Shown piece by piece: positions 1 through 23,782 of a stretch of 40,941 nt of DNA; position 1 is the first letter of the stretch, and the number at the start of each line of letters is the position of its first letter. The position numbers were made by a program, and so were the translations under genes. This DNA is from a virus (taxonomy: Duplodnaviria > Heunggongvirae > Uroviricota > Caudoviricetes): the IMG/VR virus record IMGVR_UViG_2526164598_000016; one strand, 5' to 3'. The notes under the pieces were generated by a model. The model searched no databases, was not told where the DNA came from, and was given only the letters and a program-made list of their open reading frames with translations.

Positions 1-1131
1 TCAAATGACCAGTTTTTTCCATTCCTTACCGCGTGCGTCGTTGTAAATATCGGTCATTTTTTGATTCGAATGGCCCAGCAAAATTTTGGTATCAACCCCC
101 TGCTCTCTGAACAATCGCTCTGATAAAGATCTCTGCTCATGGAAAGAGGGAGGGGTGCCATTAGCACGCCAGTTGTAATCCACAGAATCCCGGGCTTTTT
201 TAAATGCAACGGTTAATGTTGCTGGCTTAACCATCCCGCCGCGCTTAGCTGTCCCTTTCGCGTGATGGTGGTGCAATAGCCACGGACTAAGAACGCAATC
301 GCGGCAGGATGACACCACATCATCCAGGGTGAGATTTAATTTATCGCAACGCAGAGCCAGAGGGATGGCAATCCGGGTTCCTGTTTTTTGCTGTTCGACA
401 TGAAGATAACCATCCCGGATATCCGAAAATTGCATTTTGAAAATATCTGAAAGGCGCTGGCCTGTCATCAGTGCCAGCAGCATACCGCGCTGTAAAAAGT
501 AACCATCCTTTTCCGCTGCGTTATAAATCATCATCCACTCATCAAAAGTCAGTCGCTGTCTTGATATCCGCACCTGCGGTTTTTTTGCCGATTCTGCAGG
601 GTTAAAGCCTGGCGGGACATCGCCCGTTTGCTGAGCTTCCCGGAAAACATCGATCAGTACTTTCCTGAAAATTTGTCCCATTCTGTTATGTCCTCTGGCC
701 TTGTACTCTTCCAGTACTGATACCACATCTTTTACGGTTATGGCATCTAACGGTCTGGTGCCAAAACGTTCATCAAATACCCTGAGAGGGGCCGCTTTCT
801 GTTTCAGCGTGTTGAGTTTGATCTCGCCGTTTTCATATCTTTCCTGTTGAATTTTTCTGTAATTATTCAGAAAAATGGTAACGGTTGATGAACCGCCGGT
901 ATCACTAATAATTTTCTCCTGCAGACTGAGCATTTGTTCCATTTGCTGCCGGGCAAGACGGCTGTTCGCTTCTGCTGCAATAGTTTCTGCCAGTTTCTGG
1001 TCAATACTGCCGAGACCGTGATTTTTGCCTGTTATGGGATGCCTGTAACGCCAGTAAACTTTGTTATTTCTTTTGTCAAAATACGGAGATAATCCCGGAA
1101 CATCGGTTTTATATTTTCGCGGGCGCGCCAT
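1..1131 (-). CDS. int: Tyrosine recombinase, lambda-family phage integrase
   Basis: 376-aa ORF; C-terminal region has the lambda Int catalytic layout (…HELRSL…LGH…Y…GREW…); stop codon is at window bases 1-3, so the gene is complete and att should lie just outside the window. Confidence 0.9.
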   Translation of the reverse strand: MARPRKYKTDVPGLSPYFDKRNNKVYWRYRHPITGKNHGLGSIDQKLAETIAAEANSRLARQQMEQMLSLQEKIISDTGGSSTVTIFLNNYRKIQQERYENGEIKLNTLKQKAAPLRVFDERFGTRPLDAITVKDVVSVLEEYKARGHNRMGQIFRKVLIDVFREAQQTGDVPPGFNPAESAKKPQVRISRQRLTFDEWMMIYNAAEKDGYFLQRGMLLALMTGQRLSDIFKMQFSDIRDGYLHVEQQKTGTRIAIPLALRCDKLNLTLDDVVSSCRDCVLSPWLLHHHHAKGTAKRGGMVKPATLTVAFKKARDSVDYNWRANGTPPSFHEQRSLSERLFREQGVDTKILLGHSNQKMTDIYNDARGKEWKKLVI

Positions 1132-1185
1132 CTTCCAGTATCCTCTTCAAAGCAGGGTGATCTGTGGCGATCACCTCCGGCTTGT

Positions 1186-1356
1186 TTACCATTCCGACAA
1201 AGCGAGCTTGCGGATCCACTCGCCAGCGTCTTCCAACTTTTTGGGGAGAGGAAATATCATTCCGGCTTTAGCGTATTTACTTAACGTACTCGGAGTAGGG
1301 ACCGGTTCACTGAATTCCTCTTTTGCCCACTCAGTGAGCAGAATAAGTCTTGCCAT
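1186..1356 (-). CDS. xis: Excisionase-like small DNA-binding protein (56 aa, below the ORF-track cutoff)
   Basis: Hand-translated minus-strand ORF MARLILLTEWAKEEF…GEWIRKLALSEW immediately upstream of int in the same orientation; position and size fit an excisionase; no search was run. Confidence 0.55.
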   Translation of the reverse strand: MARLILLTEWAKEEFSEPVPTPSTLSKYAKAGMIFPLPKKLEDAGEWIRKLALSEW

Positions 1357-5904: not shown

Positions 5905-6183
5905 TTAGGGAAACTGGCGTCTTGCGTGGATCACGTTTACTACTTCAACGCTTGATGTTGTTACGCGGTATAGAATTATATAGTTAGGGTGGGCTACAAT
6001 CTCACGCAAGCCAGGTACTCTGTCGCTTGGTGGGTATAAATACGGATGTTCGGATAACGGCAGCACACAACCCCTTAATCGCTGCCATAAGCGTTCAGCC
6101 GCATCTATGTCGAAACGAGCAATATAACTAGTTATATCATCTAGGTCGGTATCTGCGCTTTCAAGCCATAACACGGGTAACAT
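5905..6183 (-). CDS. RelE/ParE-family type II toxin (92 aa)
   Basis: MLPVLWLESADTDLDDITSYIA…VHARRQFP, typical ParE/RelE-fold sequence; start ATG sits 1 nt after the antitoxin stop (TAAAATG). Confidence 0.8.
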   Translation of the reverse strand: MLPVLWLESADTDLDDITSYIARFDIDAAERLWQRLRGCVLPLSEHPYLYPPSDRVPGLREIVAHPNYIILYRVTTSSVEVVNVIHARRQFP

Positions 6184-6184
6184 T

Positions 6185-6376
6185 TTACTGCTTGCTCCGT
6201 TCCTTACGCATCTTAGCAAAGCGTTCTGCCATTCTGCGCTCAACTTCGTCATGGGGAATTGCTGGGCGCGGATCTGCAAGGCTCGTTGCTACTTTCGCAC
6301 GCAGCCATTCGTTGTAACTGTTTTCTTGTTCAATGGTTTCAAATTCAGAAACCATTGGTGAAAGGGCTCTATTCAT
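6185..6376 (-). CDS. Cognate antitoxin (63 aa, ParD/StbD-like)
   Basis: Small acidic protein immediately upstream of and coupled to the toxin; GGAGG SD 6 nt upstream of the ATG at 6376. Confidence 0.75.
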   Translation of the reverse strand: MNRALSPMVSEFETIEQENSYNEWLRAKVATSLADPRPAIPHDEVERRMAERFAKMRKERSKQ

Positions 6377-6396: not shown

Positions 6397-6675
6397 TCAG
6401 GCGCGGCGGCATTTTTGCGCCGCAATCCATCTCGCTATGAGATCTTCCATTGATTCTTTTTTCTGCTTTAACTCGCTGATTATCTGGCGTTGCTCATCCT
6501 CAGGGAAGGCTGAAAAAATCTGCAATAATTCCAGTTGATTAGACGTTAACCCTGCATGTGGTGGAGAAACCCCCGGTTGTTCTGCGTATTCCGCATCCAG
6601 ATACCCTTCCGGCATCCCGTATGTTTGCTCTATTCTTCTGGCAGCCTTTTCTCCAAACGAGGCTCTCCCACTCAT
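6397..6675 (-). CDS. Prophage repressor (CI-like recognition helix, DicA/RacR-like C-terminal region); the N-terminal part is displaced by a frameshift in an A7 tract (see findings)
   Basis: Frame continues upstream without a start codon as …KKEIRRLRLKEWFKDKTLPPKEKSYLSQLMSGRASFGEKAARRIEQ…; the only ATG (6767-6765) is one frame off across the A7 run; C-terminus has NQLELLQIFSAFPEDEQ. Confidence 0.6.
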   Translation of the reverse strand: MSGRASFGEKAARRIEQTYGMPEGYLDAEYAEQPGVSPPHAGLTSNQLELLQIFSAFPEDEQRQIISELKQKKESMEDLIARWIAAQKCRRA

Positions 6676-6788
6676 TAGTTGAGATAGGTAGCTCTTCTCT
6701 TTGGGTGGCAGAGTTTTATCTTTAAACCACTCCTTGAGACGTAAACGGCGAATTTCTTTTTTTGCATGTGGTAATTATCTTTAGTAAT

Positions 6789-6854
6789 CACTAAACAAGC
6801 AAATACTTGACTTAATGGTTTATTAAACACTAAACTCGCAAAAAAACACTAAAC
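6789..6854 (+). promoter_or_regulatory. Candidate PR/OR: three direct CACTAAAC repeats and a TTGACT -35
   Basis: CACTAAAC at 6789-6796, 6828-6835 and 6847-6854; TTGACT at 6806-6811; lies between the divergent repressor and Cro-like genes. Confidence 0.4.
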
Positions 6855-6864
6855 CGAGGAAGGT

Positions 6865-7167
6865 ATGACATTAAAAGAGTTTATTAAATCATTAAGGGTT
6901 GGTGATGCTAAGAAATTCGCGGCCAGACTTGGTGTATCGCCATCTTACTTATCGCAAATGGCGTCTGGACGAACAGCTATATCTCCAACCCGCGCCCTTA
7001 TGATCGAATCTGCGACGGAAGGCCAAGTAAGTAGGGCGGAGCTACGACCCCATGATTGGGAGCTTATTTGGCCTGAGTATGCGAGCGGCATTCGTTTGGG
7101 GCAAACACATGTAGTTCATGCTGAAGGTGATTGTAGTACATGCTTATCTGATGGAGTTGATTCATGA
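6865..7167 (+). CDS. Cro/YdaS-family HTH regulator
   Basis: MTLKEFIKSL…GVSPSYLSQMASGRTAISP…LRPHDWELIWPEY; resembles YdaS-type Cro proteins of Rac-like prophages (recalled); SD GAGGAAGG. Confidence 0.75.
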   Translation: MTLKEFIKSLRVGDAKKFAARLGVSPSYLSQMASGRTAISPTRALMIESATEGQVSRAELRPHDWELIWPEYASGIRLGQTHVVHAEGDCSTCLSDGVDS

Positions 7168-7589
7168 AAATCAAGCATGAACACATCCGCATGGCGATGA
7201 ATGTCTGGGCGCATCCGGACGGCGAAAAAGTACCGGCTGCGAAAATTACCAAAGCGTATTTCGAGCTGGGAATGACGTTCCCGGAACTGTATGACGACAG
7301 CCATCCGGAAGCCCTGGCCCGTAATACCCAGAAAATTTTCCGTTGGCTGGATAAAGACACCCCTGATGCTGTTGAAAAAATGCAGGCTCTGTTACCGGCG
7401 ATCGAAAAGGCGATGCCGCCTTTGCTGGTGGCCCGTATGCGCAGCCACAGTTCTGAATATTACCGTGAGATCGTCGAACGGAGGGATCGGCTGGTGAAGG
7501 ATGTCGATGATTTTGTTGCGTCAGCGGTTGTTTTGTATGACCAGATGAATCGCGGCGGCCCGGCAGGGAATGCTGTGGTGATGCACTAA
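7164..7589 (+). CDS. YdaT-like protein (141 aa)
   Basis: ATGA-coupled to the preceding gene; the position after the Cro-like gene and the sequence style match ydaT of Rac-like prophages (recalled). Confidence 0.65.
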   Translation: MKIKHEHIRMAMNVWAHPDGEKVPAAKITKAYFELGMTFPELYDDSHPEALARNTQKIFRWLDKDTPDAVEKMQALLPAIEKAMPPLLVARMRSHSSEYYREIVERRDRLVKDVDDFVASAVVLYDQMNRGGPAGNAVVMH

Positions 7590-13282: not shown

Positions 13283-13308
13283 CCCGCTTCGGCGGGTTTT
13301 GTTTTTTC
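13283..13308 (+). terminator. Rho-independent terminator downstream of hok
   Basis: CCCGCTTCGGCGGG hairpin followed by TTTTGTTTTTT. Confidence 0.5.
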
Positions 13309-13659: not shown

Positions 13660-14052
13660 GTGCGGGTATTACTTCGACCTGTTCTGGTACCGGAACTCGG
13701 GCTGGTGATCGTTAAGCCGGGCCGTGAATCCATGCCGGTATTCCACAATACCCGGGTACTGGTGGAGCCGGAACCGAAAAGCATGCGTAATCTGCCGTCC
13801 GGGGTCGTTCCTGCCGTTCGCCAGCCGCTGGCGGAGGATAAATCATTACTGCCATTTTTCAGCGACGAACGAGTGATTCGTGCTGCTGGTGGCGCTGGCG
13901 CATTGTCTGACTGGTTACTGCGCCATGTTAAATCCTGCCAGTGGCCACACGGCGATTATCACCACAGTGAAACCGTCATTCACCGTTATGGTACCGGCGC
14001 AATGGTGTTGTGCTGGCACTGCGACAACCAGTTGCGTGACCAGACCTCCTAA
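13660..14052 (+). CDS. Hypothetical nin-region protein with Cys/His cluster (…CQWPHGDYHH…CWHCDNQ…)
   Basis: 130-aa ORF, GTG start abutting the previous stop. Confidence 0.45.
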   Translation: MRVLLRPVLVPELGLVIVKPGRESMPVFHNTRVLVEPEPKSMRNLPSGVVPAVRQPLAEDKSLLPFFSDERVIRAAGGAGALSDWLLRHVKSCQWPHGDYHHSETVIHRYGTGAMVLCWHCDNQLRDQTS

Positions 14053-14091
14053 TCACTTGAGCAACTTGCTCACCAAAACCTGTCAGCATGG

Positions 14092-14709
14092 ATGATTGAC
14101 GTCATTCGTCACGCAATGAATGGCACACAGGAGCGTGAATTATCGCTGGCTGAATTATCCTGGTGGGCGGCCTGCAATCAGGTGGTGGATGCACTACCTG
14201 AGGCAGTAGCGCGTCGTTCGCTGGGATTACCAGCGGAAAAAATCCGCTCCGTATACCGTGAGAGTGACATCGTACCGGGAGAACAGACAGCCATCAGCAT
14301 ACTGAAGCAGCGCACAAAAAATATTGCGCTGCCACTTCACGTCCACCAGCAACAAAATCCACCACAGGAAAAGACGGTGGTCAGCATTGCCGTTGATCCG
14401 GAGTCTCCGGAATCCTTCATGAAACGACCTAAACGTCGCCGCTGGGTTAACGAGAAATACACGCGCTGGGTGAAGACACAGCCGTGTGCGTGTTGTGGTA
14501 AGCCAGCCGACGATCCCCATCACCTGATTGGTCATGGTCAGGGCGGAATGGGGACAAAATCTCACGATATTTTCACGCTACCGCTGTGTCGGGAGCATCA
14601 CAACGAGCTTCATGCGGATCCGCTGGCGTTCGAAGAAAAGCATGGCTCTCAGGTTGATTTAATTTTTCGTTTTCTTGATCACGCCTTTGCAACCGGCGTG
14701 CTCGGGTAA
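14092..14709 (+). CDS. DUF968-like protein with HNH-type motif (…CACCGKPADDPHHLIGHG…CREHHNELH…)
   Basis: 205-aa ORF upstream of rusA; family assignment from memory. Confidence 0.55.
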   Translation: MIDVIRHAMNGTQERELSLAELSWWAACNQVVDALPEAVARRSLGLPAEKIRSVYRESDIVPGEQTAISILKQRTKNIALPLHVHQQQNPPQEKTVVSIAVDPESPESFMKRPKRRRWVNEKYTRWVKTQPCACCGKPADDPHHLIGHGQGGMGTKSHDIFTLPLCREHHNELHADPLAFEEKHGSQVDLIFRFLDHAFATGVLG

Positions 14710-17663: not shown

Positions 17664-17763
17664 TCACAAACCGCCATTAGCTTATCAGGAAGAGCAGACG
17701 ACACGATAACAGGGTTGTTGGTGCGGGGGCGGGTCCCCGATGGCGGTCCATTATCGGTATTCA

Positions 17764-21340: not shown

Positions 21341-21411
21341 GTAAGCGTACAGCCTGAACCGTCTGGTCAGAATCTGACAAATTAGACAAAGTGGTGTCCA
21401 CCAAATAAGTA

Positions 21412-21813
21412 GTGGGAACCAAAGTGTCAGATATGCAGAAAAATGTGACTCCCGGCAGGCGAAAAGGCTGCCCTAATTATCCTCCCGAATTTAAACAGCA
21501 GCTCGTTGCTGCCTCCTGTGAACCCGGGATATCCATCTCAAAACTTGCTCTTGAAAATGGCATTAACGCCAATCTGTTGTTCAAATGGCGACAACAATGG
21601 CGCGAGGGAAAGCTGCTATTACCTTCTTCAGAGAGCCCCCAGCTACTTCCTGTGACTCTCGATGCAGCTGCCGAACAGCCAGAATCGCTCGCAGAGGACC
21701 CGGAAACCCTCAGTATCAGCTGTGAGGTAACGTTCCGGCACGGGACGCTCCGCTTCAATGGCAATGTCAGCGAAAAGCTCCTGACTCTGCTGATACAGGA
21801 ACTGAAGCGATGA
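21412..21813 (+). CDS. IS66 accessory protein TnpA (orf1); alternative ATG start at 21433
   Basis: HTH-containing small ORF typical of the first IS66 gene. Confidence 0.75.
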   Translation: MGTKVSDMQKNVTPGRRKGCPNYPPEFKQQLVAASCEPGISISKLALENGINANLLFKWRQQWREGKLLLPSSESPQLLPVTLDAAAEQPESLAEDPETLSISCEVTFRHGTLRFNGNVSEKLLTLLIQELKR

Positions 21814-22157
21814 TCCCGTTACCTTCCGGGACCAAAATTTGGCTGGTTGCCGGTATCACCGATATGAGAAATGGCTTCAACGGCCTGGCTGCGAAAGTAC
21901 AAACGGCGCTGAAAGACGATCCCATGTCCGGCCATGTTTTCATTTTCCGGGGCCGCAGCGGCAGTCAGGTTAAACTGCTGTGGTCCACCGGTGACGGACT
22001 GTGCCTCCTGACCAAACGGCTGGAGCGTGGGCGCTTCGCCTGGCCGTCAGCCCGTGATGGCAAAGTGTTCCTTACGCAGGCGCAGCTGGCGATGCTGCTG
22101 GAAGGTATCGACTGGCGACAGCCCAAGCGGTTGCTGACCTCCCTGACCATGCTGTAA
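21810..22157 (+). CDS. IS66 TnpB (orf2)
   Basis: [27 protein letters not shown]… typical IS66 orf2; ATGA-coupled to orf1. Confidence 0.85.
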
Positions 22158-22206
22158 ATCTCTTTATCCTGGTTGTCACAGAATAAGCCCGGTAAAATAC
22201 GGGCTT

Positions 22207-23745
22207 ATGAACGACATCTCTTCTGACGACATCTTCCTGCTGAAACAGCGCCTGGCCGAACAGGAAGCGCTGATCCACGCCCTGCAGGAAAAGCTGAGCA
22301 ACCGGGAGCGCGAAATAGACCATCTGCAGGCGCAGCTGGATAAACTCCGCCGGATGAACTTCGGCAGTCGTTCCGAAAAAGTCTCCCGCCGTATCGCACA
22401 AATGGAAGCCGATCTGAACCGGCTTCAGAAAGAGAGCGATACGCTGACTGGTAGGGTGTATGACCCGGCTGTACAGCGTCCGTTGCGTCAGACCCGCACC
22501 CGTAAGCCGTTCCCTGAATCACTACCCCGTGACGAAAAGCGACTGTTGCCTGCGGCGCCGTGCTGCCCGAACTGCGGCGGTTCACTGAGCTATCTGGGCG
22601 AGGATACCGCCGAACAGCTGGAGTTGATGCGTAGTGCCTTCCGGGTTATCCGGACGGTACGGGAAAAACATGCCTGTACTCAGTGCGATGCCATCGTGCA
22701 GGCACCTGCACCTTCGCGGCCCATCGAGCGGGGTATCGCCGGACCGGGGCTGCTGGCCCGCGTGCTGACCTCGAAGTATGCAGAGCACACCCCGCTGTAT
22801 CGCCAGTCAGAAATATACGGCCGGCAAGGTGTGGAGCTGAGCCGTTCACTGCTGTCGGGCTGGGTGGATGCATGCTGCCGGCTGCTGTCTCCGCTGGAAG
22901 AGGCGCTTCATGGCTATGTCATGACTGACGGCAAACTCCATGCCGATGATACCCCGGTCCAGGTACTGCTGCCGGGTAATAAGAAGACGAAGACCGGGCG
23001 GTTGTGGGCGTATGTTCGTGATGACCGCAATGCCGGGTCAGCGTTGGCACCTGCAGTGTGGTTCGCTTACAGCCCGGACAGAAAAGGCATCCATCCGCAG
23101 ACTCATCTTGCCTGCTTCAGCGGTGTGCTGCAAGCGGATGCGTACGCCGGGTTCAACGAGCTGTATCGCAATGGTGGGATAACGGAAGCTGCCTGCTGGG
23201 CTCATGCCCGCCGAAAGATCCACGATGTGCACGTCCGCATCCCGTCAGCACTGACGGAAGAAGCCCTGGAGCAGATCGGTCAGTTGTACGCCATAGAGGC
23301 GGATATAAGGGGAATGCCGGCAGAGCAGCGGCTTGCTGAACGTCAGCGAAAAACGAAACCGCTGTTGAAATCCCTGGAAAGCTGGTTGCGTGAAAAGATG
23401 AAAACCCTGTCGCGACACTCAGAACTGGCGAAAGCGTTCGCATACGCCCTGAACCAGTGGCCGGCGCTGACGTACTATGCAGATGATGGCTGGGCTGAGG
23501 CGGACAATAACATCGCTGAAAATGCGTTGCGGATGGTCAGTCTGGGCCGCAAAAACTACCTGTTCTTCGGTTCGGATCATGGAGGAGAGCGGGGAGCGCT
23601 GCTGTACAGCCTGATCGGGACGTGCAAACTGAACGGAGTGGAGCCAGAAAGCTACCTCCGCTATGTCCTTGACGTCATAGCCGACTGGCCGATAAACCGG
23701 GTCGGCGAACTGCTCCCCTGGCGCGTAGCACTGCCGACTGAATAA
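22207..23745 (+). CDS. IS66-family transposase TnpC
   Basis: 512-aa ORF with N-terminal leucine zipper, CxxC…CxxC zinc ribbon and DDE-type core, as in IS66 transposases. Confidence 0.9.
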
Positions 23746-23782
23746 CACATCCCCGTCAATACGGTTCTTGCTGCACGCTTAC

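Follow-up and report, generated by a model that had tools for sequence, protein, structure and literature searches.

Why does the repressor gene of this prophage lie one frame away from the only ATG found at its upstream end, and is the displacement carried by the organism or introduced when its DNA was read? In the stretch of DNA analysed here (the window, 40,941 nt), the minus strand shows an ATG at 6767-6765 followed by a C at 6764, seven A at 6763-6757 and a G at 6756, in the context ...GATAATTACCAC ATG C AAAAAAA G AAA TTC GCC.... The repressor frame reads TAA(6777-6775)-L-P-H-A-K-K-E-I-R-R-L-R-L-K-E-W-F-K-D-K... and contains no ATG, GTG or TTG upstream of the ATG at 6675-6673 (Met32). The first-pass annotation had described a frame open upstream of Met32 without a start codon, with the ATG at 6767-6765 displaced by one frame across the A7 tract, and the sequence agrees with it on both points. 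As deposited, the gene spans 371 nt (6397..6767, minus strand) and is out of frame; with eight A it would span 372 nt and code for 123 aa and a stop. Leaderless translation of the deposited sequence does not lead to an MQKKE N-terminus, for the frame of the ATG gives MQKKKFAV... and ends after 30 codons. This zero-frame ORF (6675..6767, minus strand, MQKKKFAVYVSRSGLKIKLCHPKRRATYLN*, with its TAA at 6677-6675) is created by the missing A. The residual 92-aa ORF that starts at Met32 (MSGRA..., 6397..6675, minus strand) encodes a DNA-binding domain without helix 1 and without most of the putative recognition helix. The TAA that closes the 30-codon ORF overlaps the ATG of Met32 as TAATG (6673-6677, minus strand), a classic termination-reinitiation layout, and if the A7 were real this overlap could yield an N-terminally truncated repressor without the DNA-binding helices.

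On sequence grounds we identify the gene as paaR2, which encodes the CI-equivalent repressor of lambdoid prophages of the CP-933P/Sp12 type, because residues 1-66 match the PDB entries 7NKV, 8C3K and 8C3L and because the gene order and the 97-bp spacer match those of the published locus. A profile of the family searched against the PDB retrieved 7NKV_A at 2.7e-39 as well as 8C3K and 8C3L ('Phage repressor protein CI'), the sequence of the PDB chain being equal to the translation of the A8 allele over residues 1-66. By tblastn, residues 3-123 are 100% identical to WP_001169687.1, and the 81 nt around the start equal those of O157:H7 genomes except for a one-base gap. The tract (6757..6763, minus strand) covers codons 2-4 of paaR2, which read CAA AAA AAA G in the intact A8 allele and CAG AAA AAA G in the Evi-type allele. 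The tract is A8 in the near-identical loci of E. coli O26:H11 11368 and ATCC 25922 and CAG AAA AAA G in phage Evi, and each of the three loci encodes an intact protein of 123 aa beginning MQKKEIRRLRLKEWF.... The addition of one A at the tract of the window gives a 123-aa product starting MQKKEIRRLRL..., the same as that of the near-identical loci. The earlier prediction that eight A would restore precisely this protein is thus confirmed by the relatives with A8 or CAG-A6, which encode exactly that sequence, and the N-terminus MQKKE is an experimental one (PMC8630535).

Homologues of 121-131 aa are found across Enterobacterales and can be aligned from residue 1, the other family members all being single ORFs with starts such as MDIK, MNIK or MSIK and with different codons 2-4. 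Twelve of the 25 invariant columns precede Met32 (R7, R10, L11, W14, F15, P21, E24, S26, Y27, S29, Q30 and L31); the possibility that homologous repressors begin at the MSGR methionine, which had been named as grounds for discarding the frameshift, is therefore not supported by the alignment. The N-terminal ~60 residues of PaaR2 are also 70-80% identical to the N-termini of 208-214-aa S24-peptidase (LexA/CI-type) repressors of Serratia, Yersinia and Erwiniaceae (P0067, P0072, P0076 and P0098), a similarity indicating that one operator-reading head has probably been shuffled, as a domain, between repressors that are SOS-cleavable and others that are not.

The surroundings of the gene are those of a lambdoid immunity region. 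paaR2 heads an operon in which paaA2 and parE2 lie directly downstream on the same strand. The second gene, paaA2 (6185..6376, minus strand), encodes an antitoxin of 63 aa that is 100% identical to the relB-family antitoxin annotated in locus L004 and corresponds to Pfam PF21217 (PaaA2) on the source contig, and the third, parE2 (5905..6183, minus strand), encodes a toxin of 92 aa that is 100% identical to the RelE/ParE toxin of L004 (Pfam PF05016). Upstream, the paaR2-ydaS intergenic region of 97 bp (6768..6864) contains divergent PRM/PR promoters and operator repeats, as deduced from a repeat search and from the published length and footprints (PMC8630535). The AAACACTAAAC repeats are located at 6786-6796, 6825-6835 and 6844-6854, together with 17-nt near-palindromes; a PR-like TTGACT-18-TAAACT is found on the plus strand, and a candidate PRM, TTGCTT-17-GATAAT-6-ATG, falls below the threshold of the consensus scan. 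ydaS, the Cro analogue (6865..7167, plus strand; Pfam YdaS_toxin 3.3e-12, HTH_3; PMC8630535), is followed by ydaT, the CII analogue (7164..7589, plus strand; Pfam YdaT_toxin 2.8e-10; PHROG 163 CII-like activator 3.2e-47). A second A7 run (GCAAAAAAA) is present at 6838-6846 on the plus strand of the operator region, between two AAACACTAAAC repeats and just upstream of ydaS; together with the paaR2 tract (TTTTTTTGC, 6757-6765) it makes up a perfect inverted repeat of 9 nt. A few relatives have this second run in another length or sequence, and in phage Evi it is interrupted.

The start of paaR2 has been the subject of direct experiments. PaaR2 was characterised as the CI analogue of the cryptic prophage CP-933P (Jurenas et al. 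2021, mBio, PMC8630535), where 5'RACE placed the +1 of a leaderless paaR2 mRNA at the A of the ATG, and where the purified protein was shown to begin with MQKKE by Edman sequencing and to have the expected mass. The ATG at 6765..6767 (minus strand) corresponds in CP-933P to this +1 of the PRM933P transcript. The same work footprinted PaaR2 and YdaS on the 97-bp region and found PR933P repressed and PRM933P activated already at low PaaR2 levels. The 5'RACE, Edman and mass data thus provide experimental proof of the intact start and of the A8 reading for paaR2; likewise, we call the start leaderless because of the published 5'RACE and not on account of the candidate PRM.

How then did an A7 allele come to be deposited? 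The window is 100.000% identical to AIHH01000030.1 of GCA_000250355.2 over 20,393 nt (L066) and 6,892 nt (L094). This assembly is a 2012 draft, one of three consecutive NCBI drafts carrying a truncated DUF968 product, its sisters being GCA_000250375.2 and GCA_000250395.2. Extrapolating from the accession order, the AIHH block probably consists of drafts from the diarrheagenic E. coli collection (DEC), of which DEC9A-E are AIGK-AIGO and DEC10D is AIGS (PMC5592225); frameshifts in the DEC assemblies have been remarked on as possible sequencing or assembly errors in the same paper. Scored in the order paaR2 tract, xis and position 13302, AIHH has A7, T5 and T6, AIHI has A7, T6 and T5, and AIHJ has A8, T6 and T6. 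Compared in pairs, the three sisters differ by 1-2 SNPs and ~2 homopolymer-length differences over ~20 kb, so that the length of homopolymers is, as the sequences stand, the main 'variation' among these near-clonal assemblies.

Beyond the sisters, seven A at this position are rare and concentrated in a few projects. The locus occurs in 593 complete E. coli genomes, 590 of which are not A7; the three that are (ETEC1732, 1734 and 1749) all come from one project, and in one of them a T8 run 2 kb away is associated with a further frameshift. The census used an 81-nt query for which an identity of at least 99% was reached by exact matches only, which separates exact A7 from all the others. Among the 51 IMG/VR contigs with the locus 42 have A8, 5 have A7 and 4 have CAG-A6, and none of the 6 metagenome contigs with the locus has A7. 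Reading of 56 loci gave 44 with A8, 5 with CAG-A6 and 7 with A7, the non-A7 copies being in frame. At the protein level at least 999 contigs have the intact 123-aa product, against 24 with the 92-aa product and 9 + 4 with the 118-aa form starting at ATT. An exact-pattern scan of one genome per species gave no matches. The A7 is carried by at least 6 haplotypes, each otherwise identical or near-identical to A8 alleles, which points to a change that is recurrent and, as far as these haplotypes tell, always recent.

The distribution of the 118-aa product is equally narrow: of the contigs with the exact A7 product, the 8 that are informative come without exception from two accession blocks of drafts from 2011-2012 (AIFU/AIGI/AIHH/AIHI and AJVV/AJVX/AKAW/AKBC, the second of which includes the CVM O26/O111 drafts) and lie on unrelated haplotypes, a ninth contig being left out as it begins downstream of the tract. 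In the draft locus L114, this base is the sole difference from the finished O26:H11 11368 genome over 3,552 nt. Among the Logan reassemblies, those with A7 (SRR094960, SRR094976, SRR096911, SRR495239 and SRR497698) are early runs, falling in SRR0949xx-0969xx and SRR4952xx-4976xx. Private homopolymer indels amounted to 1 event in 7 A7 loci versus ~7 in 50 others, a comparison that does not discriminate between the two groups and in which little sequence was covered by at least 3 relatives. A single +1 variant was seen among ~75 loci read, an A9 at the paaR2 tract of L082 (Logan ERR13317903, ~433-450).

The window contains two more contractions of the same kind. The excisionase gene xis (1109-1356, minus strand) is frameshifted by a T5 at 1238-1242 in place of T6, as seen by tblastn comparison with the annotated genes of relatives; this T5 is private, since 7/7 other copies have T6 and an intact 82-aa Xis, including both sisters and a reassembly from raw reads that has 0-1 mismatches over 4.8 kb. 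The gene of the minor tail protein L (39601-40298, plus strand), compared in the same manner, is frameshifted by a T5 at 39708-39712 in place of T6, the sole difference over ~3.75 kb from the complete genomes L104 and L107. These genomes were chosen for their identical neighbouring genes, since the alleles of the truncated L product, the tape measure and the M protein are too common to lead to the sisters. Both are thus -1 contractions of T6 runs in DNA that is otherwise identical. An additional homopolymer frameshift in the window had already been reported in the first reading, and the count now stands at three, xis, paaR2 and tail gene L. The same contraction of xis occurs in AP027446.1, an assembly in which exonuclease, integrase and ompW are all fragmented. 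Further length differences were noted, each against a single locus and in non-coding or poorly conserved stretches, at 17724 (G5 versus G6) and 26070 (T7 versus T9); at 13302-13307 the window has T6 and both sister AIHI and run SRR096913 have T5. A scan for split frames based on six-frame ORFs of the relatives returned mostly spurious antisense ORFs and was replaced by the tblastn comparison with annotated CDS. For the DnaC-like gene of the 2012 drafts, the reference in L069 is divergent (85-88%), too far for the breaks to be ascribed to homopolymers.

Taken together, these data make it very probable that the leaderless CI-type repressor gene paaR2 of the window has a true tract of eight A (ATG CAA AAA AAA GAA...), the A7 being a homopolymer undercall of the chemistry by which the draft of 2012 was sequenced. 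Flow-based chemistry undercalls at 8-mers. We favour this reading because A7 is near-absent from finished genomes and concentrated in a few batches across unrelated strains and haplotypes, and because two other A/T runs of the window, in otherwise identical sequence, are likewise one base short; of the explanations offered initially (sequencing error, genuine loss of the N-terminus, phase variation), the first is the one that the evidence favours. Eight A in the organism would be undercalled as seven in the reads, and the draft GCA_000250355.2 would consequently display a broken paaR2. The miscall would reside in the reads and not in the assembler, because independent reassemblies from raw reads also give A7. 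That the sequencing platform is responsible we infer from this pattern, and most likely the frame displacement is not a property of the organism at all.

An inherited A8-to-A7 mutation by replication slippage, leaving paaR2 as a pseudogene or a strong hypomorph in a decaying prophage, has to be weighed against this. Natural frameshifts usually arise within homopolymer runs; a stretch of eight A is a natural hotspot for slippage, and one allele with A9 was seen. Moreover, two of the three sisters share the A7, which is reproduced from raw reads and would also fit an inherited mutation, and the prophage has lesions of its own that make real decay plausible. The DUF968 gene (13660-14709, plus strand) has a GAA-to-TAA nonsense codon at 14050-14052, where all 18 relatives compared have GAA or GAT. 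Its truncated product is found on 18 contigs, including all three sisters, for which it served as a lineage marker, and the nonsense codon looks like a genuine inherited lesion when these sequences are compared. Similarly, the SASA esterase and holin genes are separated by an inserted IS66-family element (~21342-23764), whose HTH_Tnp_1, TnpB_IS66 and DDE_Tnp_IS66 ORFs lie at 21412-23745; AIHI and AIHJ do not have it at that site but have insertions of the IS21 or IS66 family elsewhere. This insertion looks like a genuine difference between the sisters, and would probably be polar on the transcription of late genes. In spite of these points we regard an inherited mutation as unlikely. The A7 is confined to a few batches across unrelated strains and is near-absent among the 593 finished genomes; the frameshifts of xis and L are private single-base contractions in otherwise identical DNA; and the ratio of homopolymer indels to SNPs among the sisters is far above what mismatch-repair-proficient E. 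coli would produce. Loss of the CI analogue would in addition be expected to derepress ydaS/ydaT and the replication, dicB and exo genes, as can be deduced from the published regulation (PMC8630535), whereas the prophage still looks replication-proficient, and loss of the repressor should be counter-selected where the replication, exo and dicB genes are intact.

The displaced frame could alternatively be a functional device, either a phase-variable switch operated by slippage of the A run, or a site of -1 ribosomal slippage on A_AAA_AAG or of RNA-polymerase slippage near the leaderless 5' end. Phased from the ATG at 6767, the sequence caA_AAA_AAG is indeed a slippery X_XXZ_ZZN heptamer placed exactly in the zero frame, and a -1 slip on it would give MQKK|EIRR..., identical to the wild type. 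Heptamers of the form A_AA.A_AA.G are among the most slippery in E. coli (PMC4066793), and PR933P is repressed already at low PaaR2 (PMC8630535). This phasing is, however, a coincidence and not a design, as the removal of one A from CAA AAA AAA G produces it automatically. Unstimulated slippage amounts to ~0.3%, and at most to ~3.7% in the best context (PMC4066793); the leaderless mRNA leaves 4 nt upstream of the heptamer, so that an SD-like stimulator upstream is not possible, and a stimulator of frameshifting was not found downstream, where the predicted fold of -14.1 kcal/mol has z = -0.71 versus shuffled sequences. The out-of-frame arrangement is not conserved in homologues either (590/593 are not A7): A8 or the interrupted CAG-A6, in frame, is the norm, and neither the tract nor the frameshift is conserved. 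A phase-variable locus would be expected to have a conserved tract with two-way length polymorphism independent of batch, whereas the Evi-type allele interrupts the paaR2 tract and homologues do not have it, A7 is limited to a few projects, and A9 is represented by a single contig. The suggestion of slippage-based phase variation of immunity accordingly receives no support, the tract not being conserved in the family and A7 being limited to a few sequencing batches, and we consider a functional device of any of these types very unlikely.

A somewhat less remote version, still a long shot in our view, accepts the A7 as real and treats it as a leaky 'savior indel'. 70S ribosomes would initiate at the 5'-terminal AUG of the leaderless mRNA; a small proportion of them would slip by -1 on A_AAA_AAG at codons 3-4 and produce authentic PaaR2, the rest would stop at UAAUG and may reinitiate to give a truncated PaaR2 deficient in DNA binding, and the resulting low-repressor state would bias the bistable PaaR2/YdaS switch; in that case a natural hotspot that tunes immunity would account for the recurrence of A7 on several haplotypes. 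Were the A7 real, a leaderless mRNA with a slippery heptamer would offer a small but neat example of a repressor null or hypomorph.

Returning to the undercall, its consequences are visible in the databases. In PGAP annotation the A7 allele is not called a pseudogene but appears as a 'hypothetical protein' of 118 aa that starts at an ATT (L004 20048-20404; L065 2739-3095; L094 140-496), in older annotations it is a 'putative phage repressor protein CI' of 92 aa, and the artefactual products are now database proteins (WP_134790997.1, WP_282835446.1, EIL31563.1 and others). Taken at face value, the PGAP annotation would mean that the A7 allele is translated from the in-frame ATT at 6753-6751 into the 118-aa protein, which is exactly the CDS annotated in the source assembly and in ETEC1732/1749. 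E. coli uses ATT as a start only exceptionally, and the choice looks like an annotation device to avoid a pseudogene call. Since the transcript begins at the A of the ATG (PMC8630535), the ATT would be placed at +15 without a Shine-Dalgarno sequence; we reject it as an initiation site not credible on a leaderless mRNA, and translation from it is the least probable of the readings considered here.

The interest of the frame displacement itself is low, because it is most likely not present in the organism and because the gene, its regulation and its structure have already been published, which also makes its biological significance small. What deserves attention is that a one-base undercall recurring across unrelated strains from the same sequencing batches could pass for a natural truncated-repressor allele or for recoding.

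Compared with known systems, the locus resembles that of Lambda cI in its position in the immunity region, in the leaderless mRNA transcribed from PRM, in autoregulation and in the repression of a rightward operon of Cro and CII analogues (PMC8630535). Unlike Lambda cI, PaaR2 has 123 aa and no S24 peptidase domain, so that it is not RecA/SOS-cleavable; the sequence similarity is low, and a toxin-antitoxin pair lies downstream in the same operon. With programmed -1 frameshifting of the dnaX type the A7 allele shares the A_AAA_AAG heptamer in the right phase, on which a -1 slip would restore the wild-type protein, but it does not have the upstream SD-like element, the significant downstream stem-loop or the conserved out-of-frame layout. 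A further likeness is to homopolymer errors of flow-based or nanopore sequencing, which likewise shorten A/T runs of 6-8 by a single base, occur several times per 41 kb, are confined to particular batches and are missing from the finished genomes of the same clones, and to which the present A7 may be attributed. Finally, once the A is restored, the protein sequence is the same as that of PaaR2 from CP-933P (E. coli O157:H7 EDL933) and Sp12 (Sakai), and the operon, the divergent ydaS-ydaT, the 97-bp control region with its operators and the sequence of the leaderless start are all the same as in those prophages. The window differs from CP-933P in having A7 instead of A8, with the ORF broken after codon 4, and in that its prophage is a different, largely complete lambdoid element of what is probably a DEC-collection strain.
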